From positions 124,001 through 188,000 of the forward strand of contig CP120459.1 in the NCBI GenBank assembly GCA_034226945.1: a stretch of 64,000 nucleotides of DNA, written 5' to 3'. Shown piece after piece: positions 4,634-61,013 of this stretch (positions within the stretch are counted from its first letter, which is position 1; each line of letters opens with the position of its first letter). This stretch comes from Picochlorum sp. SENEW3. Its lineage: Eukaryota. Position numbers and translations under genes: made by a program. The notes under the pieces are model-generated. The model made no database searches. It was given only the letters and a program-made list of their open reading frames with translations, and was not told the origin of the DNA.

Positions 4634-4849
4634 GGGCCCCTGCCTGCTTGCTTGTGTGGGCGGCACACGCGCATCATGTGTCTGTTTGTGTATTTCATGC
4701 TCATTCATGTACTATGTTTGTGTAAGAAACAATGCCCCTTCACCGAAGATGCGATGCGATCCTGCTTCTTGTGGCCTCAACTAGAGTGAGGCAGGCAAAT
4801 TTGCCTCCTTGAATTAAAGGTCATGACCCAGGAAACCCCTCCCTGGGAT

Positions 4850-5208
4850 TGTGGTAGATCAATTAAGTAGGGTCAAGTCGCGGATCTTCCGCGCTGCTGA
4901 GTTCGTTTGAGTTGGATGTCCCATCGTTGGCAGAGTCGTGTATTCATGCGAGTATGGTGACCACGGTGCATGGGGAAAGGGATTCTAGGAAGACGCTGAC
5001 GGAGAATGTATTTATGTGTGGTGGAGGGAGTGGTGTTCCTGATTTGTCTGTTGATTTATTGAAGCAGATATCGTCGAGAGCTCATGCGTCACTGACTCCT
5101 GGATTGTGTCAGGTACCAGAGCACATGCCTCAGCATGCCAGGTTGTATTATTATCCCGGGGAGTATCATGAATATGGGCCTAGTGCAGTTCATCGACATT
5201 GTAGCTGA
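4850..5208 (+). pseudogene. Decayed duplicate of the 3' part of ARP7
   Basis: Matches 2771-3200 with a net +4 frameshift at ~4885, an 83-nt segment replaced by 8 nt at 5150-5157, and point substitutions. The 5' end is absent. Confidence 0.92.
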
Positions 5209-32143: not shown

Positions 32144-35100
32144 ATGTTTGAAGCTCAGATTGTCTATTACTTGAACGAATACCTGGGGACGTATGTCCAA
32201 GGTATCGATAGAGACTCTTTGAAAGTGTCGATATACGCCGGGGATGTCGTGCTGCGGAATTTGCGATTGAAACAGGATGCGCTGGAGGATTTGGATTTAC
32301 CAGTGTCTGTGGAAGCTGGAATGCTGGGAAGTTTGACGCTGAAGGTTCCTTGGAATAATTTGGGGGGGACGCCAGTGGTTGCCGAGGTGAACCAGTTGTA
32401 TTTGCTTGTCAGGCCTCGATCGGGGGACAAAGGTCATGGGGTGTCAGAGGATAGTTGGGATATGTTTGATGAAATGTATGAGAAGTCTCGGATGTCGAGG
32501 GTGGAGCGAAAGGAGAAGGCATGGGTGAAGGGCCTGGAGAGAATGAAGGTGCATGAGGATGGGCGTGGACAGCAAAAAGGTTTCCTCAAGGGCCTGATCG
32601 ATACTGTGATCGGCAACTTGCAGATATCGATTAAAAATATTCATATTCGATATGAAGACGGAATCACACGGCCGGGGCATGTGTTTTCGTGTGGGTTTAC
32701 ATTGAAACAATTGTCAGCCTTCACAGTGGATGGCCGAGGGAACAAGGCGTTTATTGCATCCAAAGTAATGGATGCGCTGAGGAAGTCACTTGAGTTGGAC
32801 CGGATGTCTATTTATTTTGATTGTGATACAACCATGTGGTCTCCAGTGGAAACATGGGACGGTATGGATACTGATACATGGCGTGAATGGTTCCAGCCTG
32901 ATATTGAAAAGGACAATCTTGGCAGGAGGTATGTGCTATGTCCAGTGGATGGGAGGGCGTCGTATACGAGGCGATGGAAAGATATTGATCAGGAGAAAGA
33001 TGCGGCGACGGAGCTCTCAGTACATTTGGACACGGTATCTGTTTCTGTGTCGCGGGATCAGTACTGCAATTACTCACTCTTGTTGACAGAGATTTCTCAG
33101 TACACTGCTAGGTTGCCATACAGTGGATTTCGACCTCAGTGTAGACCCGAAGTTGGTAAGAGGGCAAGATGCTGGTGGATGTATTTGCTTTATGTTCATA
33201 AACAGAATGCCGAGACTAGGAAATTCAAATGGGACCAGGTGATTCAAAGTGTCAAGCTACGATCCAAGTATATATCATTGTACAAGGTCATGCTGAAGAT
33301 GGCGGACTTCAAGTCTAGAAAAGACGTCCTAGTTCCGGATGATGTGGAAGCATTGTACCAAAGAGATAAAAAGATTATACATGGGATGGAGAAGGAATTG
33401 AGCGAAGTAACCTTGTTGATGTTTCGTCGAGTGGCACGCTCGGAATATGCAGAGGAGCAAAAGAAGATTGCCGCAGAACAAGCTAAGACGCAGCAGAGAG
33501 GCTGGATGGGATGGCTCATGGGTGCTCCAGCACAGAATAATAATTCTAATCAGTCTAGTGATGGTGCCGCGAATCTGAGTTCGACAGAATATGAGACTGT
33601 CCTTGAGGTGCTGAAGGAGCAGGAAGAGACGATGAGTCTCAAGTTTGAAACACCGTATACGTTGTTGTCCAAATATGTTGTTCATGTGAGCAGCATCTCT
33701 TTGATTTTGGTGGGAGAATCACTAGATGATAGAGTGCTTGAAGGTTCCATGCAGAATATAGTCACAGAAGTTGTATCGTACCCTCAGACAATGAGTCTTC
33801 GGGTGAATGTTGGTGGCATGGGTGTCGACTCTCCAAAGGGGCCATTCGTCAAGACTGGAAGATTTATAGAGAATAAAGAAGAATCTGAGAGTGAAGCACT
33901 CGCTGTTTACTTCATTAGCAAGCCTCAGGACGGGAGGGCTGATGCTATTGTAAATGCAGAATTGGCTCCAAGTTTTGTGTACTATGACCCCAAAGTTGTT
34001 GGGAATGTGGTGGACTTTTTCCAGCCGCCTGAGGAATTTGCAGTCCAAGATTTGGGAGAATTGTCATTGGCAGCTGCATCACAGGTGGAAAGAGCGAAAC
34101 AGATTGCAGCAGAGTATGCAGTTGCAGCATGGTCTGGCAAGCCAAGCCTAGAAATGAGTTTGGTTTTGAATGCTCCAAAAATCTCAATTCCAGCAAAGGG
34201 CTCTAGGAAACAGCTTGCTCTCGATCTCGGATCCTTTATTATTCAATCCGATAATGATATCAAGAAAACTCTTCCAGAAAATGAAAGAGCACTTTATGAG
34301 TGCATCAAGATCAAAGGTAGCAACCTTTCTGCATTTATGGCTGGTGATGTCGTGGATTGGGGGAGGCAAGAGAGCTTTAGTTCCAGGGCGTCATTGCTGG
34401 ATCAATGCGCGCTTGATATGTCACTCCACATTGCTCGATACGCGGATGCTGAATACCCGATGATCAGAATTTTGTCATCAATCCCAACCCTGCAATTTGC
34501 AATTGGCCCCTCTCTTGTTGGGCAATTGATGCAGGTTTTGGGTAATATTGCTCCTGAGCGAGAGAATCCTGATATCCTGCAAGATCATTCGGATATAATT
34601 GATCATTCATGGCTTGAAAGTGCAGAATGGAGGAGAAAATGCAAGATTTTACAGTGGGCATCTTTTCAGTCTAATGCATTTTGGAAAGAGTTTGACGTCG
34701 TTTTGTATCATTCAACACTGTACTGCATTGAAGAAAGTTCGCATGGTGCCATCTCACGGCAGTATACATTGAGGAATAACAGTGTTGTATCGAAAATTCC
34801 TGAGGATATTCTCAGCATAAAGTTCGCCGTGGCAATACATGATTCTCCAGACAATGATTGGAAGGCGATTCTACGGGATGCAGGTTCATGGGTGATGGAG
34901 TTCGATGATGAGGAGGATCTAGACACATTCGTTGAGGAAATCAACTCAAACTTACATAGAATTCGAGCCCTGGCGTCCGAACTAGATGTTGGAAAGTCGA
35001 CAGAGGATGAAGAGGAAATCCAAGCAAGATCAATTGTGTACGTGAGAGCAGAGCTTGAAGAGCTGAAAGTTATTCTTGCTGGCAGAGGACCGCTGTATTA

Positions 35101-38100
35101 TGGTCAATACGACCAAAATGAGGAAGTTGATATAATATCTGTGAAAGCGTCTAAGGGTTTATTTGATTTTCATTACGGTCCAGATGAGATGCAGTCTAAT
35201 ATTTCATTAATGGCATTGGAAATAGAGGATATGATATGTGGGCCATCCTTGGAGGAGAAGTGTCTTGCGACAAGTTGTATAGATGGGACGTCCGCTGATG
35301 CTAAAAACCTTGCAGACTTCAGACTGACAAAATTATCTCCCACAAACCCTTCTTATGATGGGATTCAGACACGGCTGTCGGCAAACTTAGATTCTTTGTA
35401 CTTTTTCTGCAATCGCCCCACTATTGGCTGTCTTATGGCATTTGGATCTGAAGTGGCAATGGCAGTAAGCTCCGATGGATCTAGTGTAGACATGCCGGTC
35501 GAACAGAGCCATGAAGATGTTGAAGGTATTGTAGCAGAAAGTGTTTTGGTGTTTTGCCAAGACCCAGACACAACTTCATTTCTCCTGGATGTGCGACTTC
35601 AAAGATTACAGCTTGTCCTCAATTACGAGGACTCAAATACGAAATTAGCAGAGGCGGATATTTCAGATTTTATTCTCAAATTTGAGACAGTTTCAGATGG
35701 TAGAATGAAAATAGGTTCCAGTCTGGGCAATTTGAACCTGGTACGTTTTTCTGTGGATGCAAGCATACAAAGCATATCTAATTTTTTGTTTTATTGTGCT
35801 CAGAATGATCTTACTCTTGGATTGAATAGCACCAACTCTCACATATGCGGCTTGCGAGACAACAAAGAGTCTTCTCTCATTTCGATTAACTTTGAGATGT
35901 ACCCAGCTCATGTGGATAGTGGACTAAATTGCCCAAATGGTCTTAGCGTGTCTTATTTGGAAGCTCATTTGAGCAAACTGAGGATTCTTTTCTTGTATAG
36001 ATTCATTCAGCAATGCATCCAATACATTGTGTACATGCTGCAGTTTAGGCCAGAGGAGTTGGTGCTTGAAAATAGCAGAGGCAATGTCCCCAGCTTGCCA
36101 GATGAGCGGGCTGTAACCTCAGAGCAGCCTTTTGCTCTAGTGATGAAATTGTCAATGGATGCGCCGCTGATCATAATGCCTCGCTCTTCGACAAGTAGCA
36201 GTGGCGTCAAGGCAGACTTAGGAACTCTTACACTTGAGAATAGTATCAAGCGTGCAGAGACCGGAGAACTACTAGATGAATCGATCTTGAATCTCTCTGG
36301 TGTGACGTTGATGCCTTGCTCCGCAGAGGGGGAAGGTGCTTCACTCATTCAACTTTCTGATGAAGGTTGGACCATACGGTGGCAACGCCCTCTTGGAGAG
36401 GTAGATGATAAATGCATCCCAGATTTCGCGTTGGATATTACAATCCCCACTTTACAGGGTCATTTGTCTGATTTGGAGTACCAGAGCGTAACTACAATAG
36501 CATCAAGTAATATTAGTGAAGAAATAGATCTTCCAACTGGTGTGGAATCTATCCACAGGCACATGAATGAGATTGGCCCGGTTTCTTCATTGACGAGTGA
36601 TTTAGTAGAACATGCTCTCGTTTCTCCCAGAAAATCTCATGATAATAAGAAGCCTGAGGGAATAAAGTTGCGATTGCATCTATGGATCAAACATCTGCAA
36701 TTAGACATTTGCAATGAGATTGGACCAGGCAAGAGAAATGATCTTGGCCAATTGCAGATCAACGATCTCGATGTATTATACACATCATTCGCATGTGATG
36801 ATACTTTGGTAGAATTGTCATTGCCCAAACTAGAGGTATCTGATCGGAGGTCCCATGTATCTCTAGAGCAATCACTTGTTATCAGTAGTGGACATCGAGC
36901 TTCATTTCTGATGCTCAGGTATTTGGCTGATGAGCAGGAAAAAGACTTGAAGATAATACTCCAGAAGCCAATGGTAATTTTGGAGCTTGGATTTTTACTT
37001 GAACTTGCAAGATTTTTCGTGCCTTCGTTCTCATTTGTCAAGTCGGACCCTTTGCCATTTTTCACACATGACATGGTGCTTAAAGGTAAGTGGTTTCTCC
37101 ATGGTTAAGCCTCGCATTGCTTTCAGTCAGTAATATTGTGTCTTTATACAGAAGGAGGTATGAATCTCCCTAATGACATATGGCTTTCTCCAGCTGTGAG
37201 AATTCTTGCTGATACTCAACCTGCAGAGTATATCATGGATGGACAGGGACATTCCATCTTCTTGCCACCTGTGAAAGACTTGTCAGAAGTTTCACCACTC
37301 ATCATGGTGGGACCAAACAGCATTTTGAAAATGATGAATGTTAAGATTTATAATTCCGAATCGCTCAATACGTGTCTCAAACTAGGTCCTGGTGCAAAAA
37401 TTTTGCTCTCAAGAGAAGATGGCGTTGAGCTTTTTGATACAGCACAGGAAGGCAGGGGTGACTCGGAAATTGATCTTGAAAAAGGCTATAGAACTGAAGA
37501 GAATCCCTCTCAAAAATATAATCTCACTATCAGTGCGAGCAATGTGGGGGTCTATCTGCTAAAAGCAGGTGAACCAATAAGTCAGCAGAAAGCATGTTCC
37601 AACGAGGTCAGCAGTGCAACAGCTCATACAATCAAGATCCAGGCCGACATAACCGCACAAATGAATTTTGATGAGCATCAAATGCATGTGAAATCATCTA
37701 TTGATGGACTAAGGGCCTCGCACAACAGAATAAGTAACTTAAAGGAACAGGCTGTCAGCAGATCAAACCTGGAACTGGCAAGGCATACAAAGCTCAAAGC
37801 GAAGAAAGAATCAGATATACTCCTACCCACGGGCATCAAATTTGATTTCAAGTCGGGGGACAAGGATATTGATATGACTTTGTCTATCTCGGAGGTTCGC
37901 TATTACATTTCTCCTGGACTCTTGGAACTGGGGACAAAGTTGTGCAAGGAGGCTTTGGCTCCCCTGCAACAGCCTGGTCCTGATGCCGCTGCTTTTGCAG
38001 TTTCAAAATTCCAAAAGTTATGCACTGTCAAATGCAATGGATCTGAGAAGGTGTACAACGAGGCATTGCTGTACGAGTCAGAGATGATAACATTTTGGAA

Positions 38101-41100
38101 ACCCAGTGCTCCAACTGGCTATGCATTTGGAGGGCATGTGATCACCCAAGGAGAGAAGGCACCTTCATTCGAAGTCATGTGTCTAGCTATGAACTCTGGT
38201 CTAGTTAAATGCCCTGATAAATTTGAATTGCTCTTCTCCAATGATATTATTTGGTTATGGGGGCCTGTCACAACAGAAGGATTCACAGCAGTTGGAGTTT
38301 TTGTGACAATGGACCCGAATCCCCCGTCAATCGAGGGAACGTGTTGTGTTGCATGCGATGCTCTTGTGAAGGCACCTTTAGGAGAAAGGATTCGTCTCTG
38401 TTCATGCGAAAGTGAAGCAGTGATTTCTAATATTGACAATTCGTTTGGCACATTCCTGCAAAGTCAGATCTCACACATCTTTCCTGCAGACCTTAGATTC
38501 CCTGTAGGAGTGACAACCTACGGTCTTTTCTCTCGTAATTTAAGTTCGACTCTGGAACATGGAAGATCTATTCCTGATCTGCTGGAGCAGTCCAGGAAAA
38601 TCCAGGATCAGTACATTGTATCTCAAAGGAAGCAAAATTTGTCTCAATCCCGCAGTGTGATCTCACCACAGACAATGGACTTTAAAAGAATTTGGACAGA
38701 CAATGGATCTTTATCGGCATCGCGTGGCGTTTCTATTTGGAGGCCAATTCCTCCTCCAGGCTATGTGATTCTTGGTGATGCTTTTCAAAACGGCTTTGAG
38801 CCTCCAAAGTTTGTGCACGTCCTACAAATGGAAGAGAATTCACTTATCGCGAAGGAAACAAAGCGCTGTGTTAGGCCATTGAAGCTACAGATGATCTGGC
38901 ACGATGGGAATCCAAAGCACGAGCATGGGCTATCAATTTGGAAACCGGTACCACCTGAGGGCTATACTGCTGCTGGGCACATCGCACAAATTGGGATGAA
39001 AAAGCCCGATGTAGATGTTGTATGCGTCCTGAATGAGCTATTGCATATTGCGCCTCCTCCAAGGAAACCTCTTTGGAGTGTAAAAGCGGCTGACCAGAGC
39101 GTGAATCCTCTGAGCGTCTGGCATGCTGATGAACGGACTGGGTGTTTTTGTGTTGATCCTACAGATCATCTAACTCCGCCAGAAATTTGGGTCTTAAATA
39201 TGAGTGCATTGGAGCCAAGTGCATCCGATGAATCGGGAAAGACGATAAATGCAGTTGTTCGAGTCAAATCAATACAAACGACATTTCTTAATACCATTGG
39301 GAGCCCTTTGCTCAAATTCAATGTCAGTTCGATTGAGTCAGGTATTCGTGGCTACAGTCAAGAAGTTATTCAATCTTATGGAGGCTTTCAGCCCTCGTTA
39401 CACACTTACAATTGTTCCTCGGGACTCTGGGAGCCTGTCATAGAGCCATTTGATGCAATCATAAAAGTTGACTCAAATTTCACCAATCAGGTAGGTCCTT
39501 CATCGGCTAAATTATACTCGTCGCTTTCCATAGAATGGTCTGATATATTTTGGTTTTTGTTTTGTTTCAGAATTCATCAGGAATCGACCCGGGCGTGCAT
39601 GTATCAGTAAAGTCATCTACAGAGATGATTATGAGTACTCTTGCTGTGAAGCAGATGCATTCTTTCGTTGCGGCAATTGAGGAAGCGACCATAGCTCTTC
39701 AGGAAGATGTAGTGAACGATGCGATTTTATCTAACCTTTTCTCAAATGGAAATGGGATTGTCAAATCTGGAATGAGAAACAAACTAGGTGTACCCGTCAA
39801 CCTTGAAGTTGAAGAGTTAAGCGGCATGTGCGTCTGATTGTCCCCTTTGTTACTGTCATTCGAAAACTTACGATTCTCTCTTAAACTTTGCAGAAAATCT
39901 TATTGCATAGATGTGGAATCAGATTTCTCAATAGAAAGACCTGTGCCACAAAAACTGGTGAGAGTAGATGATCCAACAGACAAAACGAATCTACCGCCTG
40001 CGCTGCTGCTTGTTGATATTCACAGTGTGGACTGTCCGATCAAGAATACCCGCCTTTATATCACTGTGGAATTGAATGGAAGAGATGATTCCTCATGTCT
40101 AAGTCCTAAAACGAGAAGTGCTTTTATTGATGGAGGTGAAATAGTATTTGATGAAAGGCTTGTTCTGTCATTGTCGCAGCAGAATGAAACAGTCAGCGAA
40201 TGTTTGTTTGAAGTGTGGGATGCGTTTTCTAATTACGGTAGAGGGTCAGTATTCGCGAAAGGTTACCTAAAATTGCGGGATATTCAGCCAAATGGAAGCC
40301 ATCATACAATCAGTTTGTCCAACAATGGTGGTGCAGTTGGTTCACTCACATGCAAGGTGCAGATACAAACCCATGGGATTTCGAACAGAGGCGATGATGC
40401 AGCAACAGATTTTCAGGATGCGGGTAAAATGGCCATCAATATTCCATCTGCAAAAGATTCGAAAGATATCTGGAGAATCATTCCTGACTTTTCAGAAAGT
40501 TTTGAGCAGAACCCAGCTGAATCAAAAAGCAGTGCATCAGTCACTTCCATTCAGTTCGGAAATGATCTCGTTGTCATAGAAAGCGCCGCAAGACAAGGCT
40601 CTTGGAGTGAAATAATTCGGTCTAATTGCAAATTCCGAAATCAAACTGGCCTGCAGGTATCCTTGGAGTTGGTGTTCGAGAAAAGCCAGGACACAAAATC
40701 TTTGGGAATTGTGCAGCCTGGAAAATCTTTGCCTTTGCCATTATATTGGGATAGACCTGATGTATTGCTCTCTGTAGTACCTGCATCTGATAGTAGTTAT
40801 AGCTGCATCGTTAATCAGCAAGGCGCAAGCGCAGGCATCTCTCTCTTTGAAATACAGGATGGATGGACAACCTTCATGGAGTGCAGGCCTATTGATCAGA
40901 AGGGTAATTCGACATATTTTAGTGCTTATGCATATTCCAAATCGTTACCTAGATCTCAGAGAAACGATTGGGAAGTAGTTCTCAACCCTCCTCTCGTTCT
41001 CCGAAACCATGTTCCTGTGCCCCTTCATGTGCAGGTGGAGCAAGGAATTGGAGCAGGAAGGCCTCCTTCATTCTCAGGACTCGTGGAAACTGGAGCAAAT

Positions 41101-44100
41101 ATACCTATTTATAATGCAGACATCATGGATCAAATTTCATTGAAATTTGAGTCAGAGGAGTATATTTGGCTTGAGAAGGGCCCAGTTCCAGTGGCAGGTG
41201 CAAAATGCTCATCCATAAGAGATTCTGCTAGACTTTCTCGGCCTGGGCAAGAGATACCTACTGAAATCTTCATCGGTACAACATCTGTGTTTGGCAATAG
41301 GTCTTCAAGTGGTGATTCTTCTATTGTCCTAACGCTATTCTCTCCTTTATGGATATTAAACAAAACCAGTTGGGAGGTTAGACTGGCTTTACTTCCGACT
41401 CTGAATCTTGCAAAGAAGCCCCGGACAGACTCCAACCTCGCTCAGAAATTTGGTGAAACATCCACCTTTGGATCATTTGTTGCGGCTTCAGATGAGATCG
41501 ACACTGATCGAGTATCTAATGCCAGAGCAGTGTCGCCAGGGTCTGTAGAACTTTTGAGTTTCCCTGCAGCCTCTCTGCAAGAGTCTTCTGCTGAATCTCC
41601 GTATGCAATACGAATGAAGGTTCAAGGATCTGGGTGGACGGAACCAATCCTCTTTGATGAGGAGTTTGCAAAGAAACACGGTTTTGCTGCAGTTTCATCG
41701 AGACCCATGCTGCTATTTTCAGACTCTCGAGCTCACTCAACAGCATATGGAACAGTTGTTCGATTAGAGATGAGCGAGTTCAAGGAATCCCGGATTTTGC
41801 ATATTGACACACATATGTTAATTCAAAACAGATCTTCGGTCGATTTCGAAGGGTTCCAGTGCCGATTGAAAGATCAATCTGCATCAGTTATGGCACAAAA
41901 ATCAGGAGTAATTGTTCCAGAAGGTGGCGAGTTAAAGCAAACGCCTGGCAGCTCAGTCTCATCTAATGCTATTCAAACTGATAATCCAATCGCAGGAAAA
42001 TCATTCGTGAAGATGTCGGATGAATCTTTTGATGAAATTATGCATTCAAAGGCCCTTTTTGACCTACCTGCTGATTGCATGTGTAGGCCAGTCAACTTTA
42101 TCAGGGGACTATATTTCCATGCTGTCTGTTTGAGGCAAAAATCTCCGGACACTGCTGAAAATATTGGAATCTGGAGTAGACCGGTGGTTTTCGATGACTC
42201 GGGTGAAGGCACAAAGTTTGTGCTAGTTCCCGTTTTGCAAAACAATATGTTGGAAGGCCACAAAATGATTCGGTTGCGCTTCACTATTAGAGGGCCTGGT
42301 CTCACGATGATCACAATAGAGACTGCAGATTGTTATCCTCCTTATGTATTGGAAAATAGGACAGACTTGCATTTACAATACGTGCAACCTGGGTGCAATG
42401 ATGCACCAATATATGATTTGCCTGGCTATACTGCAGTGGGTTTTGTGCCAGACTTCTCCACACCTGGTGAAAAGGTTAGAATCAAACTTTTCAGCGAATC
42501 TTTCAAGTCTTACTCCAAGATAGTCGAGTTAGATGAGGATAACGAGGGTGAAGTTGAAGAATTAAGCGTTTCCAGCACCAAGTCATGCCTCATCAAGACA
42601 TCTTATGAAAATGCTAGTGTCCTCACTCCGCTAGGTGACAAGGCAATGTCTGGTGATTCCACTGGATACTCAATTGGGCGTGGAGGTGTGGAAAAGGTGG
42701 TGCGAATCGCTTCAGCTAAAATAGAACTTCTAAGAATGCCACAAAAAAGCTCGGTTGCCCTCAACGAAATATTCTTTTCCTTGGACATCCCAGGCCTCTC
42801 AGTATCTATAATTGATGCGTATCCAAGAGAAATATCTCTTATTACCGTATTGGGCATTAACCTTAAGTTTGATCGCTTTCTAATGCCGAACGGTATTGGA
42901 TTGCAGATTGGATTTGTGGCAAATTCTCTGCAAGCTGACAACCAAATGCCAGGCACCCTCCTCCCTGTTGCTCTTTGCAGGGCTCTGGCATCTAAGAGTT
43001 CAATGCCCTTTATTGAATGCCGATACTCTACATTCTCGTCACGAACTAGAGCAGGCGTCTTGCTTCCATTCATTGGGTGTCGGATGCCGAATAAAATTCA
43101 GCTGGCGATTGAGGAGAGTTTGATCTGGCGACTCTACGGTGTGTATGAATCAATAGTAAGCCTTCTACCATCACATAAAGAATCTGAAAAGACGACAACT
43201 GCTGCTGCCGATGCATTTGTTCGACTTCGGTTGCTGTCTGTTAGCAGGACAGATTTGTCTGTGAGCTTCCAAAACAATCCACAATCGAGACCGTTGAGCA
43301 TCCATGACTCATCTCTGGGGATGATACTCGACCTTGCTGCTTTCAAAGGAGCTAATCTAAGTCTGAAAGGTTTCGAGTTGCAACAGCTGAATCTCAGTCA
43401 GTCATCTCTGACCCAGCGGATCATCGAGGTATGTTTCCATGGAAATGTATGCATTTAATTTACTGTCTTCATCTGCGACATCTGTACATGCAGAGAATCA
43501 GAAGTGATCTAATTGGAGCGGCATTTTCATTGATAAGTACGTTTGGTCTTGTGGGGGGAGCATCTCGTCTCATTGGCTTCCTCGGTGCAAAAGTGGCCAA
43601 ATTTGCAGACTCTGGCTCTGGAAGAAAACACACTTTGTCCGCACCTTCAGAAACAACTCAGCCCAACCAAGCTATCGAGTCGAACGATTCTTTGAAAACT
43701 TCTATGATCAAAGGTTTCAAGGGTTTGGTAAGCAAGCCTGTGGAAGGAGCCAAGAAAGATGGCTTTGAAGGAGCATTCAAAGGTATGGCCAAAGGCGTTG
43801 TAGGAGTCTTTGCAAACCCGATGAGCACAATGCTTGCAACCTCTTCAGAAGGCTATAACTCAAACTTTGCAAAAGATAGGGCATCTGTCTTGGTTTTGGA
43901 GAGAAAGAGACTGCCTAGGGTGATTAGTACAAGTGGAAGAATAACACCCATGACCAGGGGAGGAACAGATAGAGAGTCAGTACTGGAAGCACTTGGCCAA
44001 TCATTCTTATGGGCAACCTGGATAGCGGATCCACTTGTAGACAAAATGCCTCTAGAGAGCTACGAAGAGCACTTTGTCTTGCCTAATGGATACGTTCTGC

Positions 44101-45224
44101 TGTTTACAAGTTCAAGTATCCTTCATATACATTCGCCGTACTTTGCTGAATTGGACGGCGCTGCAGAGATTGGAACCTTGCCAGCTATAGAAATTCCTCC
44201 AGGAAATATCAAATGGCGCATAATTTGGGAGGATCTTTTGGCTATGGAGCTCCGCTGGAGCGATCCAACATTGCAACCTGATAAACTTGTCATGCATAGG
44301 AAAGGAAACTTGCAGTCAGAACACAGCACCAGCAGGCAGCAACCTCAGGAGCTATCAAGAGACATTATGTGCTTCCCCAAGACACCTCAGGCGTCTCAAA
44401 TCAAGTTCATCGCGAGCAAATTGCTGTCAAAATACTATCAGGACCCACAGAGGCAGGATCACAGATGGGCAATGAGGCATCAGGCAAGGGCAGCTCTGCC
44501 CCAAGACAAGGCAGTTGAGGATTTCCCGCTTCAGATGCCATGCACTGCATTCGAAAAATCCTGGCAAACAAATCCAAGGCGATCTCCTGTCGTGCACTTT
44601 TGGAATCCCGTACCCCCTCCTGGCTATAAACCTGTTGGGAGTGTGGCAACCTTGGGACCTGAGCAGCCAGTAGCACCTGTGCCATGCTTCAGAGACGACA
44701 TCACACTCCGAGGAAGGCAAATACTGGCGACAGATCGTCCTCATGTTGCCTTTCCAGAGGAGTATTCTTTGATTTGGAGATTCAATGGTGAGAGACCAGT
44801 CACCATGTGGATGCCAGTGCCTCCCAAAGGGTACAAAGCTATGGGAGCCATCATTCTAAATTCAGCGACCACTCCATCATTGGACGACTACGTTTGTTTA
44901 CGAGAAGACTTGGTGTCGGAAACCTCGATATTTGATTCGCCTATATGGACATACGACCCAGATGCCATCCAAGCAGAACTGCAAACATCTTCGCACACAA
45001 CAGCAAAGGCATCACTCAGCAAATCCTTCAAATCACTCAAACTGGGAAACAATCAGCAGCAAAGTACACAACAAGCTGCGTCCAAGCACATGTCAGATAA
45101 ATGGAAAGTATCTGTATGGCAAGTAGACAATGGTAGATGTATGACACTGTTGGTTGTCCGTGGTCTAAAGAAACCACCCACAAAACTGTCATTCACTCTT
45201 ACAGGAGTGGATTTCAAAAAATAA
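32144..45224 (+). CDS. VPS13: VPS13 lipid-transfer protein (~4,246 aa; plant-type with PH, Vps62/DUF946-like repeats and C2); introns 35741-35803, 37086-37151, 39491-39570, 39828-39893 and 43429-43493
   Basis: Chorein N-terminus (MFEAQIVYYLNEYLGTYV...LTLKVPW), WRP.PP.GY repeats, PPY.LEN, LQADNQ, and KPVEGAKKDG..G..KG.AKG. Five GT-AG introns join the ORFs into a 12,741-nt reading frame. Confidence 0.93.
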
Positions 45225-45240
45225 TGCATGATATATATAT

Positions 45241-46088
45241 TCAAGAAGATGCATGTTTCAATCGATCAGCGACATTGTTCCAATTGACGACCTTCCAAAT
45301 TTCCTTGAGATAATCTGGTCGAACGTTCTTGTATTGAAGATACTGCATACATTGAAATCAATTGCGAATGATAACCAGTACGATATTAGACAAGAAATAC
45401 ATAAACCCAACGTACGTATGCATGCTCCCACACATCAATACCCAACAACGGAATCAATCCTGTTGTTGCCTGCAGTGGATCTTGGTTGGCTGTTGTTGCC
45501 ACAACCAACTTGTCACTCTCCGTATTATATCCCAACCAACCCCATCCAGACCCCTGGACAGCGGCTGTCTTTCCATTAAACTTGCTGATCATCGTATCCA
45601 AGGATCCAAAGTCCCTTTCAATCATATCCAGCAACTTCCCCTGAGGGGGCTCTGAGCTTCCAGGAGGACACAGCATTTCCCAAAACATGGAATGATTCAA
45701 ATGCCCTGCGCCCATGGATGCATACCATCAATCAGAAACAACAGTATAATAAATACTACTGCACCGCACCTCCTCCATTAAATTTGATCGCAGACTGCAG
45801 AGCAATCATCTTGTTCACATCCCCAGCATGCTCTGCCTCTGCAAGCTGCTCCAAAAAACTGTTCAAATTCGTCACATACGTCTGATGATGTTTCTTATGA
45901 TGCAGTTCCATAATCTCTGGAATAATCACTGGATTCAATGCACTGTAATCATAGGGAAGATCAGGCAGCGTTGCCTTGCCTCTACTCCCATGGAGCGTGC
46001 TGCTGCTACTGCCAGCGATGACAGATGCCTGCTCTGGCAACACACCCACCATTCGCTTGATCGTTGACAAAGAGCTTCGACGAGCCAT
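45241..46088 (-). CDS. MSD1: Mitochondrial Mn superoxide dismutase; exons 45770-46088, 45416-45705 and 45241-45342
   Basis: [43 protein letters not shown], and [18 protein letters not shown]. Confidence 0.96.
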
Positions 46089-48428
46089 TCTGATCTATGA
46101 CTATTGAATTAATGACCCTAAGGAAGATTTAAATATGCACGGATCAAACCCTACCATGACGCTGGAAAGCGTCCAATGCTGGAATCTTCCGGAATTAAAT
46201 AGATTAAAACATTCCCGCGATGCTGTCTTTGAGTACCTGCCTTTCATCGGGATCTGTGTCTTGATTTCAAATTTCGTACATAGATTCGAGGATTCGTTCG
46301 GGGGCGTCTCTGGACCGACCAGCCTCATGCGAGATGGGATGGTGCAGCCCATGTGTTTGGACGTATGGTTTGATGCGGATACTTCAAAAATTTGGACATA
46401 CACAGATGGTTCCAAAGCTACGGGCTGTTTGCTTGTGGACTTGAACATGAGACAGGGTAGTTTGAGGACATATGTTGGTCGTTGCCGACGGAACAGGTGC
46501 TCTAAATGCCAGCTGGCAGATGTGTTGACCAACAGAGAATTGTAGCCAGGTCTGTAGAAGTTCGAGTGTGCACCGATATTGAAGGCAGTGCCATGTCCCT
46601 AGTCCCTAGGCAGTTACAGAAAACTATATCATTATAATGGATCAAATATATGGTCTATGTGATTCAACGTCCCCACGGCAATTAACAGTGCAATTTGTTT
46701 TCTCTGTATTGGGCAGGAGGCTAGTATCAGATGTCTTGTGGAGCACTCATCACCGTTCTCTTGCTCTTAAGCGCCTTTAATTCCTTTCATCATACTATAT
46801 ATGGTTGTTCAGTCCTTTGATCGGTGTTGTCTTTTTCGTATATCAGCGTTTGGTCGCAGTATCCGTGATACATCTGAGATCCTTTGAGGTACCTGAGAGT
46901 TGCTCACTTCCAGTCATACCTTTCCTTGCAATGCTTGGTGTGCATCAATCCGGTATCCTTCACTGCTAGAGAATGCTCTATTCTTTCTTATAGGCGAATC
47001 TCTTGGCGCTTTGGTCGCTGTTTTATTTTCTTGAATCTTCTTGCCTTCTATTTCCCACTGTATGGATGTATGTCATTCCAACCTATACCTTCCTTTTGTT
47101 TCGGCAGATCTTCGTGATCCTTTTGTTTTATCTCATATGATCGGTAAATATAATACTGGTTTTTTGTGTGCTGAGAGGTCAATTGAAGGTATGGAGTAAA
47201 CTGGAGGTGCTGAAAGTGAGCTATGGTTGGTGCCATAATTCCTGATATTTGTCGACTGCTTCCTGACTTGATAATCTGCCTCAAAGTGATTTCTTGTGGT
47301 TGATGCCAGCTTGGAATCAACAGTCTTCTGGATTCCTTGGACACAAGGACTTTGTGAGGCCGGATCAATAACAACAATACGATCGTGGCATTCTGATTGT
47401 CCCATTGTCCCCCTCATATGATTTGAGAATTCTCAATTGGGACTGATTTTGTAAAGCGATCCTGCATTTCAAATCCACCATTTATTGTCTTCAAATTAAT
47501 TCCATTTGAGATGCTAGTGCTACCCTACTATCCGATATATCCTACTCTGTCTCAGTGTACACATAGCGAACTTGGAAATTGGATTAGACAACAGACAGGT
47601 CCTCTTTCAACGGAGCGTCAGGTCCAGCACAGACGAGACACGAGTCTTCAATCAATAGGATCGAAGCAAGGATGCTATGAATGGGGTCACAATGGCTATC
47701 TCACCTGAAACACTCGCTTGGCTGTCAACCCTTGGTGGGTACAAAAAAATTAGACCCAGATCCACATTTGTTAGCAGGTCTCAGTTTCCTTCTCCCTATC
47801 AGATTCCACACTCAATAAACTCAGCCATGGAAATGAGTCCCAACGGAAGCAATATTGATGGTATCAATATGCTAAAAAGTTGCATCCCGTGAGAAAGGGC
47901 ACAGGTAGATTCTTGATGCCCTACAGTTGAGACGAAAACCTTCATCTGGTGGTCCCTGCTGATAATAATTCAGATCCGGCCACTCTTTTGGACGGTGTTG
48001 ATTCATTCTCTGCATGCTAAATGCACTCATGAACCGACTTTTTCATCTATACCATGAAAATATTTGTTTTTTGCAACAGTTGGACCAGTCAAAAAAGCCA
48101 TCTGTTCTGGAGGAATACATGTATAACTTTGTGGTCTAATGCAATTCCCCCGAATTTGATCATACGCGCCGGGCTCAAAGAATCCGGGCTGCCTGATTTT
48201 GGTCTTGGAGGTCGATGAGTAAAATATCGGGACATATATTGGTCGGGGCGGACGGAGGACATGCTCTGAATGCAGGGCAGTTGTGTTGACTGACAAAGTG
48301 TTCACAGGACAGCACCCTCTCATGCACCTCATGAGAATCAGTGCCATGTCAGTAACCATTTGCTTTTTGAGGATTATACTGATCACTCTGAACATGAGCA
48401 ATTGCATCGAATCTTCCCTCATCTCTTT

Positions 48429-48626
48429 AGATGTTGATGAAATGCTCTTAGGTGCTCTCTGATGTTCTTAGAGCTTTGTCAGGTGTTTTCAGATGATCTT
48501 GGATGTTCCCAGAGCTTCATCAAATGCTCCCAGATGTTGATCACATGTTCTCTGATGATCTTAGATGTTTGTTGAATGTCCATGAAATATTGATCTGATG
48601 TTCTCAGAGATTCTGAGAGGTCCTTG
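48429..48626. repeat. Degenerate 10/11-bp tandem repeat (consensus ~AGATGTTCTC), ~19 units
   Basis: Manual parsing gives agatgttgatg/aaatgctctt/aggtgctctc/tgatgttctt/agagctttgtc/aggtgttttc/agatgatctt/ggatgttccc...; 198 bp over 19 units is ~10.4 bp per unit. Confidence 0.75.
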
Positions 48627-48679
48627 TTCATTAAATCTTCTTTCATCTTCTTTGGCACTGCTGTTTCCGTAATAAGTTG

Positions 48680-49065
48680 GGGGCACTCTGGGGAGTGGGT
48701 CGATCGAGCGAATTGGCCGGCCCACCGAAGGCCGCGACAGGTGAAGAAGGCTGGTTTCGGAGGTGTCGGCACCTCGCCTTTGCGGCGCTGGGCCGCCCGG
48801 CAGGAACGCCCGTTGCCGCCCGGACCGTAGCCCAGCCCAGTTTTTTTGGAATATCTTTTCGTCGGGGGCCGAGCGAGGAAATTTCGGGGCCTGGCGAGGG
48901 AGCGATTTTCGGCCCATTTCCGGAAATCGCGCACATCGGCGGACACCGCCCCTCGCTCCCGGCACCTCCGCCGGCGAGAAATGCAAAATCTCGCAGCCAC
49001 GGACGCAAATATTCGATCGGGAGGATCTTTTGCTCGGAATAGATTCCGCGGTGGCCGCCGCGATT
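48680..49065. other. GC/CpG-rich non-coding island with interspersed A/T tracts
   Basis: Composition differs sharply from the rest of the window. ORFs in several frames are low-complexity Arg/Gly/Pro/Ala with no recognisable motif. Confidence 0.65.
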
Positions 49066-49221
49066 TAAAGAAAATCCCGATTTTTTTATGGTTACAGCAG
49101 AAATCCTTAATCTACGCATCGCAATAAACACGACCTCATCCTGACTGTGGATCAGCAGTAGTCAATTCCCAACCATTACTAGTATTTTTATGTAGTAATT
49201 TGTTATTACAGATATAGCACA

Positions 49222-51176
49222 ATGCATAGAATATCCTGTATACACGACCATTCTCTGCTCTTTTGCAGCACAAGTTCTGGTGGAGGACAGGCCTACTCCT
49301 CAGCAACAGGACTGTGGTCAGGGAGCCTGGTACCACAACAGAAACACTCGACAGGAATCAGAAAATGTTCCTCCGGAAAGCCGTTAGCAAGCCATCATAG
49401 TAGGGGTGTGTTGTCTATTTCAAAGGGACAGACTGGGTCTCGCCTGTGCGCTGCGGACAAGGATTCGTCATCATATGCCCAGAGAGAGACTGATTTGAAC
49501 ATGAAATTAGATTCGTTGAAAGCCGAGACGAAATCATCCTTTGCCGAGACGGTGGAGAGGGTGAAGGCACTGGCCCAGAAGGAGCAGGGTGGGTCAGAGG
49601 GAGTTGATGTGTCTGATACTGCGCCTTTGCAGGCGAGACTGAGTGTTGCTATAGAAGAACTAACCTCAGGATTGATCGAAAGGGATACAGAGGTGAGATT
49701 GCTATTGCTCGCAGCATTGTCCCAGGAGCATGTATTGTATTTGGGTCCTCCTGGAACAGCAAAGTCAGAGTTGGGAAGACGGTTGAGTAAACTATGCGGT
49801 GGTTCGTACTTTGAAAGGCTATTGACACGATTTTCTGTCCCAGAGGAACTTTTCGGTCCTCTGTCGATGCGGGCACTTGAGAATGACGAGTATGTGAGGC
49901 AGGTGGATGGATATCTTCCTACAGCTGATGTGGCTTTTGTGGATGAAATTTTCAAGGCAAACTCTGCTATTTTAAACACATTGCTGACAATATTAAATGA
50001 GAGATTATTTGATAATGGGTCTAGAAGAACCCGTGTTCCTTTACTGTGTCTGGTTGGAGCATCCAACGAGCTTCCTGAGAGCGAGGAACTGGATGCGCTC
50101 TATGATCGCTTCCTCATCAGGCGTCAAGTGGGCCAAGTGTCTCCTGCTGGGCTGATGGATATGTTGACGACCCGCAAAGGAAAGTGGCAGACAAATTCAC
50201 TCCGTCATCCTGGGGTATCCATGTCAGATAGCGGTGACTGGGAGGATGGTGATGCTCCATTGTTGACTGTAGAAGATTTTGAAACAACACGGCAGCGTGC
50301 AGAGGAAGAGGTTCACGTGCCTGCAGAGGTCCTTAATATCGTCGCTGATCTGCGACAATATCTTCAAGACAAATGCGAACCTCCTGTGTATGTGTCTGAT
50401 AGAAGGCTTGTGAAATCTGTTGCATTGTTACAGGTTGCAGCATTCTCATCTGGAAGGACCTATGTCACCCCCAAGGACTGCATGCTGCTGCAACACGTGT
50501 TATGGCAAAAACCAGAGGAATCAGAAAAGATTTATGAGTGGTTGTTACAAGCGTTAACGCAGGATGATGGTATGCAGCAAATGCAGTATTTATTATCGGG
50601 CATGTTTGGTAGGGCATGCAAGTCATTGAATAAGCCAGATCAGGTGGCTGGTGTTGTGGATGAGGTGAAGCAATTGCGCCAGACACTGGAAGATAAACTG
50701 ATGGATATTTACAAGAAACAGTTTGGACGCGAATCTGGAAACGAAAATGTATGGATCAGTCCAGAGGAAGTGGATGCTTTGGATACAGCCTTGTCTCCAA
50801 AGATGGACAAGACCAGGGATGAGGTTGAACGGCTCTTGTACGAGGTCGTCACGCTCGAGGTACGATTGTATACTAGTAGTTCTTTACGTGTTACATAGTT
50901 ATATAGTCATGCTGATGATAGCACCGGTGTGGGTTTGGTATACGCAGAGGTCTCTAGAGTACGGTGCTGGCCCAGTAGAACTTGCCCAGCTCTTACCACA
51001 ACAATGGGCAGCATTTTTACGATGAACAACAACAAATAACAGTTTCCATGTCTGTCCAGGTTGCCCTATCACAAAGCACGGAGCCGGTCGTTCTCGCCGA
51101 GCTCATGCCCCGTCATTGGTCAGATTTTGTTAGAAATGCACCATTAGAACAAGTCCAGCCACTGGGACTGAAATAA
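49222..51176 (+). CDS. RavA/MoxR-type AAA+ ATPase, probably plastid-targeted; exon 49222-50859 plus last exon 51060-51176 (or 50948-51025)
   Basis: HVLYLGPPGTAKS, LLTRFSVPEELFGP, GYLPTADVAFVDEIFKANSAILNTLLTILNER, GASNELP..EELDALYDRF and VSDRR are RavA signatures; Ser-rich N-terminal extension. Confidence 0.9.
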
Positions 51177-51190
51177 GAAAAAAAAAACAC

Positions 51191-52121
51191 TCATCGACTC
51201 CTCAGAGATTTGAAAATCTCAATCATATCATTCATTCCACCAGCTGTAACATTCCCTTTACCAGTAGGCTCCAATTCAATCTCCATATCTTCCAACATGG
51301 GTGGTGCAGAGAGCAGCTCACCACTTCTGCTCCTCCGCACAGGAGCATTTGGAGGCATGACAGTATCCCAGGATAGTCCATTCCCATCGGCAACTTTCGG
51401 GAACCCAATCACACGACCACCTTTGAAGCCTTTAATACTAGAGCGAAGCTCATTCACACTAATCCCACCAATTTCAGTCACCTTGACGGACTGAATATCC
51501 TTCAGGTTGCCCACAAACACTCTCTGGACATCCCCTTGAGCATCCATGTATTCATTAAAGGTATCCCCACGCACATCCACTATATACAAACCGATAGAAG
51601 GATCCTCTGTATCATAATAAATATTTCCTGCCTTGTCGAAAATAAAAAGGCGTCCCGCCTCATCCTGCGCAGCTGCAACAACATTGCCTCCCTTGGTTTT
51701 TAGCAGGGCAACCCCATTCCTCTTGTCCACTGCCACAATGGGTGCTCCAGCACGCAGTGCAGTATACCACAGCATAGTACCACCAACCATGATCGCCAAT
51801 ATATTACGTCGAGGTATGTTCTGCATGGCATTCTCTGGAGCCATATCAATTGGTGGAGGTGGAGGAGGAGGAGGGGGAGGTGGCATGTTTGGAGGAGGAG
51901 CCCGAGGCAATCCGGCCCTCCCATTCCTCTCCGTCTGCTGTCTTTGACTCCTCGCCATGGTACGTATATATTTGCCTCTCGACAATCGGCCATTCCTGCA
52001 TTGTCCACGTTGCAGACGGCTGCATAGAGAAAAGAAAAGAGAAGAGTTGGAAAAAAGTCACGACACTCCAACCAACAGCATTCAAGCACACATACCTCAT
52101 ATCTATTACACTATCACGCAT
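51191..52121 (-). CDS. Hypothetical protein, probably thylakoid-associated; exons 52096-52121 and 51191-52019
   Basis: GT-AG intron 52020-52095 (phase 2) gives an Arg-rich leader, a poly-Pro tract, then RRNILAIMVGG (twin-Arg plus hydrophobic helix) and a beta-rich domain. Confidence 0.7.
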
Positions 52122-52476
52122 TTTATAACCCTAATAATACTATATTCTAGCCTGTAAGCTGCTTAGATGCCAGAATAATTGATCGACTTGATTCCTCCTC
52201 GTTCTCTGTTTCATGCACAGGCAACTGTGTTTGTCTTTTTATTCAGCAGCTAATACACCACTCCGACAAGCACAAATCCAATTTTTCCTGATATGTTAGG
52301 GATTCAATCACCTCTTCTGAGAAAAAACTCATGAAACAGGACCCATCTCACATCGTCACCTAGATTTCTTAAGCAAGAGATCTCTCTATTTCAAACATTA
52401 AATACTCATCTGATTATCACACAGATACGCAAGATACGACCCACATTATTGCAGAAAACACATAATCGGATATCCC

Positions 52477-53319
52477 ATGCGTCATCATCATCATCATCAG
52501 ACATCGAGAGGTGGCGGGACCCCTCTTTCAGCACCTGGATATGCTTCTGTAGGGAGGAGAAGGATACTATCATATGCAGCCAGGGACAGGAATATGGGCG
52601 GCTATATGCCACATTCTGGAAAATTTTCTAGACAAGCCGCACTCGATGCATCCGATAGCAAGGAGGACCATGAGGGTGGGTGGACTCGCCGAACGCTTCT
52701 TCTCATGTCCACGTCTCTCTGCCTGATGGCTTCGCCAGTGCGCGCAGCTGACGTTATAGATGGACAGGGTGAGGTCAAGGTACTGGGTCTGGATGCTGAG
52801 GAGGATCTGACGGTGTCTCAGAGGCAGCTACTGGAGTATAATAAGAGGGCTCAGAGGCAGAATAGTGCACCACCTGATTTCCCATTGTTCATCAAGGAAG
52901 GATATGATATGACCATGTTGACATCGGAGGGGTATCAGATGACTCCAGAGGGTTTAATATATAAAGATTATGCAGTTGGATCGGGAGATGAGTATCCAAA
53001 GGATGGTCAGCAGGTGACATTTGATTACACAGCGTACAATGAATCTGCATCAGTGATTGACAGCTCGTATAGGAAAGGTCAGCCTGCATCGACAAGGTTG
53101 GGGATTTCTGGAATGATTCCAGGGTTTGAGTTGGGGATAAAGACAATGAAGCCAGGTGGGAAGCGGAGGATTGTTGTTCCACCTGAACTGGGCCCACCTG
53201 TGGGTCCATCCACCTTTTTCTCAGCCAAACAGTTTGAAGTATTTGATGTAGAGCTTCGATCTGCTAAAACATGCACTCGTCGAACGATTGGCATGTTCTC
53301 GGACGTTGTCTGCGAGTAA
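52477..53319 (+). CDS. FKBP20-2: Thylakoid lumen FKBP-type peptidyl-prolyl isomerase
   Basis: TAT signal (TRRTLLL...VRA); MKPGGKRRIVVPPELGPPVGPSTFFSAKQFEVFDVEL; C-terminal Cys pair C.RRTIG..SDVVC. The start is uncertain. Confidence 0.9.
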   Translation: MRHHHHHQTSRGGGTPLSAPGYASVGRRRILSYAARDRNMGGYMPHSGKFSRQAALDASDSKEDHEGGWTRRTLLLMSTSLCLMASPVRAADVIDGQGEVKVLGLDAEEDLTVSQRQLLEYNKRAQRQNSAPPDFPLFIKEGYDMTMLTSEGYQMTPEGLIYKDYAVGSGDEYPKDGQQVTFDYTAYNESASVIDSSYRKGQPASTRLGISGMIPGFELGIKTMKPGGKRRIVVPPELGPPVGPSTFFSAKQFEVFDVELRSAKTCTRRTIGMFSDVVCE

Positions 53320-59699: not shown

Positions 59700-61013
59700 A
59701 TGCATATATATCCTTCCTGTGCTAGTAGCCATTTGCGATCGTCTGGCTGTGGCGGTGTGTTGCAGCCACAGCTGGCGGGCAGAGGCGTTTCTGGTACCAG
59801 TTCCTGTCGGAATGATCGTTCGATGGGGTGGACATCTGCTCCGAGGCTTGGGCACATGGGTCGTCGTCCTTCTACTTCTTCTTCTTGTTCGACTCGATCA
59901 ATTGTCACTGGCGCAGCGGCTGATGTTGTGGCGGCAAATGGATCCAAGCGAGTTGTAGAGCATGAGAATGCAAAGGCGAATGGTAGCGGTACTAGTCATG
60001 GGCAAGTGAACATGGGGAGGTCACAGTTGGATGGTCGACTACGTGAGCATCACCACAAAAAGCCACAAGCAGGTAGAGTAGGGGAAGGGGACTGTCCTGT
60101 CGAGTTGACGGATAAAGAGATTAACCGACGGAGGAAGATTAGTCAGGCAAATAAGGGCAAAGTTCCTTGGAATAAAGGCAAGAATATGACGGAGGAAATG
60201 AAGGCCAAGATTAGTCAGAGAACATATGAAGCTATGCAGCGACCAGAGGTAAAAGCTCGTATGAAAAAGGCAAATTGTCAGCGAGCGCCTCACTCTGAAG
60301 AGGTGAGGAAACGGATTAGGGAGGTTCTGAAACAGAGAGCGGATGCTGCCAAGGCTGTTATTTCAGAGCAGACTGATAGAATTCTCGCGGCGATGAGAGA
60401 CAGTGAACATGAGTATGAAAGGAAAATAAGTGACGATGATGATGCCAAGGATGTCATTGGAAGGTTGGCATGGCGTCTGTTGCACAGGGATTTTGAGCTC
60501 ATGTATGAGAAATGGGACAACAACACGGATGGTTTTCGCACAGCTGTTGTGCTGCGGTTCAAAGAATTGGAGGATAGAAAGGTGAAGAGAAGGAGGGCAA
60601 AAACTAAGAAGAAGAATGAGGATAGAGAACGTAATCAGACAATAAAAGCTGCTGAGAAGGCGCGGAGTAAGCTTGCTCAGGCTGAGGAAAAGCTAGAATC
60701 CGTAGAGCATGCAATAGAAAAGCTTCAAGCGTTGAAGATAACACTTCAAGATGACCCCGAGTCTCTCTCTCGTGTCTTAGAGAAGGAGAACCAGACCACA
60801 GAGCTTTTAGGGCGATTGAGAGAGCAGGTGAAACTCTTGCACCAAGCCATGGGGCCCTACGAGCAGCAATATGCTCAAGCAGCAACAGATGGTCCAGCTC
60901 TTGTTCAGCATGAATCCAATTCATCGGTTGTATATAGCAGTGAGCATAAGAGGACATCATCTGTCTCTCAAGCAACTCCTCCATTAACTCAGGTACCCTG
61001 GGGGCGACATTGA
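59700..61013 (+). CDS. NUMOD3/IENR2 DNA-binding-repeat protein with coiled coil, probably organellar
   Basis: EINRRRKISQANKGKVPWNKGKNMTEEMKAKISQRT.EAM..P.V...HSEEVRKRI; Ser/Arg-rich leader. Confidence 0.85.
   Translation: MHIYPSCASSHLRSSGCGGVLQPQLAGRGVSGTSSCRNDRSMGWTSAPRLGHMGRRPSTSSSCSTRSIVTGAAADVVAANGSKRVVEHENAKANGSGTSHGQVNMGRSQLDGRLREHHHKKPQAGRVGEGDCPVELTDKEINRRRKISQANKGKVPWNKGKNMTEEMKAKISQRTYEAMQRPEVKARMKKANCQRAPHSEEVRKRIREVLKQRADAAKAVISEQTDRILAAMRDSEHEYERKISDDDDAKDVIGRLAWRLLHRDFELMYEKWDNNTDGFRTAVVLRFKELEDRKVKRRRAKTKKKNEDRERNQTIKAAEKARSKLAQAEEKLESVEHAIEKLQALKITLQDDPESLSRVLEKENQTTELLGRLREQVKLLHQAMGPYEQQYAQAATDGPALVQHESNSSVVYSSEHKRTSSVSQATPPLTQVPWGRH

Follow-up and report, generated by a model that had tools for sequence, protein, structure and literature searches.

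A RavA-like ATPase gene of the green alga Picochlorum with two homologous alternative C-terminal segments

The production of protein isoforms from tandemly duplicated exons is a known kind of event. In human KRAS the last coding exon exists as a tandem duplicate, 4A and 4B; the stop codon of the upstream copy leaves the downstream copy untranslated, and the two tails change the contacts made by the protein. Mutually exclusive exons that arose by tandem duplication form a general class (an example is PMC6071210): adjacent homologous segments of the same phase, one of which enters each protein and which have been conserved for long periods. The stretch of Picochlorum sp. SENEW3 DNA analysed here, 64,000 nucleotides (nt) corresponding to positions 124,001 to 188,000 of contig CP120459.1 and hereafter called the window, carries a gene with a comparable arrangement at its 3' end: the product, a RavA-like MoxR AAA+ ATPase, can finish in either of two homologous tails, encoded by segments A and B, according to which of two acceptors is joined to a single donor. 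The explanation we put forward, and hold to be very probable as a whole, is that an ancient duplication gave rise to A and B, that alternative acceptors choose between them, that selection has maintained both, and that the splice choice would swap a contact surface of the ATPase.

The LARA domain of Escherichia coli RavA binds LdcI. It is a beta-rich 'foot' at RavA residues 361-424, set in a triple-helical leg (excerpts of PMC4145799, together with general knowledge), and the leg that carries this partner-binding foot also makes RavA-RavA contacts (again in excerpts of PMC4145799). The C-terminal part of such an ATPase is where the two algal isoforms differ, and we consider below the sequence, the RNA, the relatives and the modelled structure that bear on how, and to what effect, they do so.

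One donor, two acceptors and two homologous tails

Exon 1 of the ATPase gene closes with the letters ...CTCGAG and is followed by the intron onset GTACGA at 50860; because 49222-50859 holds 546 whole codons, this donor is of phase 0. Two acceptors, ACGCAG ahead of 50948 and GTCCAG ahead of 51060, are both in frame with it. They differ in quality: acceptor A is preceded, at a distance of 33 nt, by a branch-point candidate, CTGAT, and its pyrimidine tract is poor (9/20), whereas acceptor B has 13 pyrimidines in 20, all of them inside the 34-nt spacer or the end of segment A. The remaining features of the region are collected in Table 1.

Table 1. Features of the alternative 3' region of the ATPase gene and of its neighbour, in window coordinates.
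Feature	Position	Strand	Basis
Exon 1, RavA-like MoxR AAA+ ATPase	49222..50859	+	open frame; Pfam; 546/546 identity to P0130
Proximal intron, 88 nt, GT..AG, spliced out in the A form	50860..50947	+	sequence; joint in run X1
Segment A, 25 codons + TGA (51023-51025), core LLPQQW..FLR	50948..51025	+	translation; equals the P0130 tail
Spacer, 34 nt, from the A stop to acceptor B; carries the pyrimidine-rich run of acceptor B	51026..51059	+	
Distal intron, 200 nt, GT..AG, spliced out in the B form; encloses the whole of segment A	50860..51059	+	joint in X1 and X5
Segment B, 38 codons + TAA (51174-51176), B-type tail, ancestral by sequence comparison, terminal V-x-P-x-G	51060..51176	+	
Sole + strand TGTAA within 50801-51500; candidate shared poly(A) signal	51245..51249	+	sequence
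Convergent neighbour gene, 255 amino acids, no Pfam family	51191..51958	-	open reading frame; Pfam

A and B are tandem homologous coding segments. In an ungapped alignment of 25 amino acids (aa) starting from the acceptors they share 10 identities and score 54 under BLOSUM62; in 200,000 shuffles of A that score is never matched and 10 identities turn up once, while of the 56,450 stop-free 25-mers that the six frames of the window provide, just two attain the score against B, namely B itself and A. A first-pass annotation, made by a model from the letters and open reading frames (ORFs) of the window, had proposed the phase-0 donor with its two in-frame acceptors and had aligned the resulting peptides. 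Sequence and translations reproduce both peptides exactly, and the alignment is real and far above chance by either measure; the acceptor positions hold, and the exon ends need a small correction, the coding part of A being 50948-51025 and that of B 51060-51176.

Both splice junctions are used. RNA was surveyed in Logan contigs from four runs of four studies (X1, X5, X6 and X8), aligned to 49900-51500 with the likeness threshold lowered to 90. The joint to B (50859>51060, skipping 200 letters, GT..AG, cut +2) is present in two of the four runs and the joint to A in one; the contig depths, which represent neither expression levels nor isoform ratios, are 155.7 (X1) and 4.84 (X5) for the former and 108.4 (X1) for the latter. 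The A joint reads 50859>50952 with the letters AGAG between. These turn the R-S-L-E with which the tail starts in the window into R-A-L-E, the start that annotation gives to the A tails of P. renovo and strain BPE23; the X1 joint therefore corresponds, in a related strain, to junction 50859>50948. Both predicted junctions are thus found in RNA, at contig level and with short flanks, and the observed joints coincide exactly with the predicted GT..AG borders. X1 also contains an unspliced contig (50833-50975, depth 40.4), and contigs that bridge A, spacer and B occur both there (record 5, 50952-51067) and in X5 (record 10, 50961-51087). Neither X6, which is probably DNA, nor X8 has any joint among its contigs aligned to this region, and no joint leaving segment A is seen among the contigs of the four runs.

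UGUAA is the poly(A) signal of chlorophytes. Given that contigs run from A into B, that no joint leaves A and that the sole TGTAA on the + strand lies past B, the mechanism is probably a choice between a proximal and a distal 3' splice site within one terminal region. A tandem duplication of the last ~25 codons took place in an early trebouxiophyte, and the upstream copy A lies within the 200-nt intron that is removed to reach the ancestral B. Use of the proximal acceptor, at 50948, yields a protein ending in A at A's own stop; use of the distal one, at 51060, skips A and yields a protein ending in B. Spacer and B would stay in the message of the A form as 3' untranslated region (UTR), and both forms would end at one poly(A) site.

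The first-pass annotation had called A and B alternative last exons. That there are two homologous alternative C-terminal segments stands; the term 'last exons' probably misses the precise mechanism, in view of the bridging contigs, the lack of any joint out of A, and a + strand TGTAA found only past B. With true alternative last exons the A form would be polyadenylated right after A, and splicing would compete with polyadenylation. Besides being the wording first chosen, this fits the presence of TGTAA immediately after the A stop in one related locus (L001), and RNA ends are in any case invisible in contigs; but the window has no TGTAA from the A stop to acceptor B, its single + strand copy being that at 51245, the spacer is merely 25-59 nt in five loci, and contigs of X1 and X5 cross A, spacer and B. 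We regard this mechanism as unlikely. Nor does the locus take the form of mutually exclusive exons, there being no common downstream exon, a stop at the end of A, and no donor joint from A. What it does present is a pair of neighbouring homologous segments that share their phase and have a usable splice site apiece. RNA structure was considered as the selector between them, and the folding energy of the donor-to-B region proved no better than that of shuffles (z = 0.43 for the window and 0.47 for L001).

Conservation and origin of the two segments

A scan of metagenomes supplied 80 loci related to the gene, of which 76 reach the 3' end (6 Picochlorum-like and 70 prasinophyte-like) and 4 end early. 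All six of the Picochlorum-like loci (L001-L005 and L007, at 72-80% identity) have the GAG-GT donor, A with its stop, a short spacer, and B, in that order. The proximal intron varies between 64 and 191 nt and the spacer between 25 and 59 nt across loci, with no alignment outside the splice sites, and segment A is terminated by a stop in each of the five loci compared in this respect (window, L001, L002, L005 and L007). The 70 prasinophyte-like loci among the 76 complete ones (~53-57% identity) are intronless, with B contiguous with the ORF and no A, the state taken as ancestral.

In four of the Picochlorum-like loci (L002, at 4671-4889, and also L003-L005) segment B is itself split, after 47 nt, by an extra 102-nt GT..AG intron of phase 2, which the window, L001 and L007 are without; from its sequence it looks like a recent gain inside an alternative segment.

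The coding segments have been held far more tightly at the protein than at the DNA level. Between the window and L001 the proportion of differing synonymous sites (pS) is 0.71 in both segments, while the proportion of differing non-synonymous sites (pN) is 0.13 in A and 0.06 in B, giving ratios of non-synonymous to synonymous substitution (dN/dS) of 0.07 and 0.03; between L002 and L007 there are 16 synonymous differences and 1 non-synonymous in A, and 13 and 3 in B. Where measurable, then, dN/dS of the two segments is ~0.03-0.07, with synonymous sites saturated; purifying selection acts on both copies, in several lineages and across the Trebouxiophyceae.

These figures bear on the suggestion that segment A is splicing noise, a decoy acceptor that at most lowers the output of a B protein which alone matters. 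Consistent with it are the universality of B (74 of the 120 homologues listed), the weaker pyrimidine tract of acceptor A (9 against 13 of 20), and the appearance of the A joint in one run of four. A decoy would hardly be conserved as protein in the face of saturated synonymous sites, as in the 16 against 1 of L002 and L007, nor would A-type tails be identifiable in genera as far apart as Picochlorum and Trebouxia, Coccomyxa and Apatococcus; the X1 contig depths of the two joints are, moreover, of the same order (108 and 156), and the A form would not be an obvious target of nonsense-mediated decay, as no exon junction lies downstream of its stop. On this evidence it is extremely improbable that A is noise.

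The 120 homologues listed comprise 10 with an A-type tail, 74 with a B-type tail (58 matching a strict pattern, 16 variants assigned by eye), 4 that are ambiguous, and 32 that are truncated or are gene calls which end within the intron following T-L-E or continue across it. A homologue search restricted to the final 50 aa of isoform A gave 10 proteins among 57 candidates, none of them additional. Exon 1 of the window is identical over 546/546 residues to P0130, the NCBI 'ATPase RavA [Picochlorum sp. SENEW3]', which is annotated with tail A only. Elsewhere A and B are annotated together: under one locus tag in Picochlorum sp. BPE23 (M9435_001103, and also in its second haplotype), and as isoforms of one locus in P. 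renovo (NNA_004145.t1/.t2), Nannochloris desiccata (g08560; also g08383), Trebouxia sp. C0005 (WJX79_009955) and Apatococcus lobatus (WJX74_003724). In Chlorella sorokiniana the protein named 'AAA_5 isoform A' has the A tail and 'isoform B' a B tail that continues into the downstream gene; in C. vulgaris and Coccomyxa subellipsoidea, A and B are in separate records. All taxa with annotated A and B tails belong to the Trebouxiophyceae. The named homologues listed from volvocine and Scenedesmus-type algae, Tetraselmis, Bryopsis and Ostreobium, whose class labels are general background, have B alone.

The first-pass annotation had suggested an old exon duplication kept under selection, and had named orthologous loci as the place to look for both exons. 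The suggestion is borne out here: A precedes B in six of six Picochlorum-like loci and tail pairs extend across the Trebouxiophyceae, with low dN/dS, and with both isoforms at single loci in several trebouxiophyte genera.

Among the eight taxa that have both tails, 53 of 56 comparisons give A a higher score against the A of another taxon than against the B of its own; the mean score is 53.7 when A tails of different taxa are compared and 34.2 when A is set against B of one taxon. A alone has the core LLP.[RQ]W..[FY]L[RT], with the protein ending 0-9 residues later. Since A resembles A across genera more than it resembles its own B, one duplication would have occurred before these trebouxiophyte lineages split; the simplest reading is a single old tandem duplication, with A and B evolving separately since. 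The competing idea is that A-like segments arose several times independently, or that their likeness has been kept up by gene conversion with B. Tails of 25 aa are short, so that trees built on them are weak, four proteins (P0103, P0046, P0076 and P0115) are intermediate or ambiguous, and Trebouxia sp. C0006 has a third copy, all of which would sit well with repeated origins or conversion. The 53 of 56 comparisons, the gap between the two means, and the A-only core and early end common to the A tails speak to the contrary, and we find this idea very unlikely beside a single duplication.

Two further observations concern the copies themselves. In P0014 and P0153-P0157, from P. soloecismus-like algae, the gene calls are of an unspliced type, running from exon 1 (..T-L-E) directly into a 25-aa A-type tail; the proximal intron thus seems absent from this lineage, A being the unspliced product. 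The first residue of the tail there is V (GTN), which would retain GT at the old donor position. A contig search with P0014 for DNA of this kind found no relative. The Trebouxia sp. C0006 product, P0158, has its third and more divergent tail copy ahead of the A-type copy, so that Trebouxia may have three tandem copies.

Our literature searches, whose scope did not take in supplements, turned up no paper on the event, on the homology of the tails, on their class-wide conservation or on the role of an algal RavA-like protein; two hits on 'RavA' were the author name Ravanel. The isoforms, then, are already in public annotations, while their homology and class-wide conservation are described in no paper found.

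The protein and the possible role of its tails

The gene product is a RavA-like MoxR AAA+ ATPase. Pfam assigns it bpMoxR (2.5e-63, 213 bits against a cut-off of 27), AAA_5 (86.8 bits) and AAA_lid_8 (78.3 bits), and its translation includes Walker A (GPPGTAKS) and Walker B (VDEIF) motifs. Among proteins of solved structure its best relative is RavA of E. coli, which phmmer matches to residues 143-458 with E = 4e-61, the alignment stopping at RavA residue 311. The B isoform as modelled by AlphaFold (P0003; mean predicted local distance difference test score, pLDDT, of 73.6) matches RavA structure 3nbx with Z 32.9 and a root-mean-square deviation of 3.5 over 365 aligned residues, model 137-548 corresponding to chain 3-497; the next family by fold, 2r44, has Z 23.2. 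The fold match to solved RavA extends over the C-terminal helical leg. Relative to RavA the algal protein has an N-terminal extension of ~135 aa, the first ~86 residues of which are modelled with low confidence. After model residue 421 the model consists of helices, with no strands, and so has no LARA-like domain.

The end of RavA falls near model residue 548 and that of exon 1 at 551, so both tails lie past the last helix of the leg. The B tail is modelled as three helices (pLDDT 88, 90 and 80) followed by 9 ill-defined residues (pLDDT 48). For A the same two short helices are predicted (pLDDT 75 and 71), with a different conserved surface, and the protein stops before V-x-P-x-G. The conserved end N-x-P-...-V-x-P-[LI]-G is present in the B tail alone, and its V583, P585 and G587 recur in no fewer than 90% of 40 B-type proteins sampled across Chlorophyta. 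Conservation of the B terminus despite its low pLDDT would be the signature of a docking peptide.

Retention of the splice choice throughout a class implies that the two tails probably do different jobs. Because they sit at the end of the leg that mediates partner and hexamer contacts in RavA, the choice of acceptor may alter a contact with a partner or between hexamers: it would swap one contact surface for another and add or remove the terminal docking peptide, and the partner engaged by the hexamer (for example a ViaA-like VWA protein, or a substrate), or the number of copies engaged, would change with it. A more specific version, in which the tails are interchangeable 'feet' on the leg, where E. 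coli RavA has its partner-binding module, with the V-x-P-x-G of B docking a ViaA-like VWA adaptor or a client complex, and hexamers containing A, pure or mixed, either uncoupled from that partner or redirected to another, is a tentative proposal to which we attach rather low probability; A would have been kept since the base of the Trebouxiophyceae. If it were true, the feet would amount to a client switch worked by splicing on an AAA+ chaperone, in eukaryotic genomes that are among the most compact.

The A protein could instead act as a built-in modulator with no partner of its own, forming mixed hexamers with B and so lowering the number of docking motifs per ring. That A retains the two tail helices but lacks the V-x-P-x-G end would suit such a role, and RavA-type ATPases do act as hexamers (as stated in excerpts of PMC6987120). 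A has, on the other hand, surface residues of its own that are conserved across genera, suggesting more than simple loss, and a model with distinct partners fits the present results equally; we consider modulation doubtful.

Several points weigh against the explanation as a whole, a splice-swapped contact built on an ancient duplication. The RNA support consists of assembled contigs, not reads, from runs whose RNA nature is a guess; no more than 20-30 letters flank the joints, which were accepted at the lowered threshold, and the joint to A was found in one run of the four. Since the contigs are unstranded and the 3' UTR of the convergent neighbour may cover the stretch, those that run from A to B could be antisense or pre-mRNA. 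The public isoform pairs are database annotations, and the order of A before B in Chlorella, Trebouxia, Coccomyxa and Apatococcus is deduced from protein models.

What the locus offers, above all, is a handle on protein function and a correction of uneven annotation, near-identical genes now being recorded with A alone, B alone, or both. Protein-changing alternative splicing conserved over deep time has rarely been documented in green algae, and in the intron-poor genomes of Picochlorum an intron retained so as to house a duplicated coding segment is conspicuous. The two tails, set apart by a defined surface and by a conserved peptide at the terminus, constitute a natural experiment on an unstudied RavA-like ATPase found throughout the chlorophytes, and either can be removed by mutating one acceptor.

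Surroundings of the gene and comparison with known systems

The convergent gene (51191-51958, - strand), whose product has a proline-rich N-terminus, has its stop 14 nt from the B stop, which makes an antisense overlap between its 3' UTR and the alternative region unavoidable; as the first TGTAA on its strand is at 50891-50895, within the proximal intron of the ATPase gene, that UTR would overlap both alternative segments. Upstream of the ATPase gene, at 48700-49000, lies a 300-nt island of 63-70% G+C in DNA of ~45% G+C, single-copy in the window and without a match in Rfam; a search of 45000-53000 against Rfam gave 0 matches. Four consecutive long ORFs at 32144-45224 (+) have, in turn, VPS13_N + VPS13_M, Vps62, VPS13_VAB and Vps62 domains, and are probably one very large VPS13-type gene interrupted by short introns or frame changes. 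At 59700-61013 (+) a 437-aa ORF carries NUMOD3, a DNA-binding motif typical of homing endonucleases, in nuclear algal DNA.

As the first-pass annotation had remarked, no VWA gene accompanies the ATPase in the window: Pfam finds no VWA domain in the 25 long ORFs scanned, nor in the RavA-like gene or its convergent neighbour. A contig search with alignment A2 returned bacterial RavA-like loci alone, of which 80 were kept and nine sampled (L081, L085, L087, L089, L091, L111, L115, L117 and L132); in all nine a gene for a protein with a C-terminal VWA domain is directly downstream of the RavA-like gene that most resembles the algal one. The family context is therefore RavA-ViaA-like. The algal protein shares with E. 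coli RavA (PDB 3nbx, 6q7l), the companion of ViaA, the AAA+ MoxR core, the lid and the helical leg. It differs in its extra ~135 aa at the N-terminus, in a C-terminal tail that goes beyond the last residue of RavA, and, in the model, in the lack of a domain like LARA; its gene, unlike that of RavA, is nuclear, eukaryotic and intron-bearing, with no VWA gene in the window.

With respect to splicing, the nearest architectural analogue is the human KRAS pair of exons 4A and 4B, where the upstream copy likewise has its own stop. KRAS 4A, however, is a cassette exon with its own donor, whereas algal segment A has no outgoing joint and two acceptors serve one donor; the protein family and the kingdom are also different. 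From mutually exclusive exons the algal event departs in being terminal, not internal, and in showing no sign of competing RNA structures; in the RNA, moreover, the exclusion is not strict, since the A-form mRNA probably retains B as UTR. Homologous neighbouring segments of the same phase, one of them to a protein and conserved over long times, are what the algal gene and mutually exclusive exons have in common.

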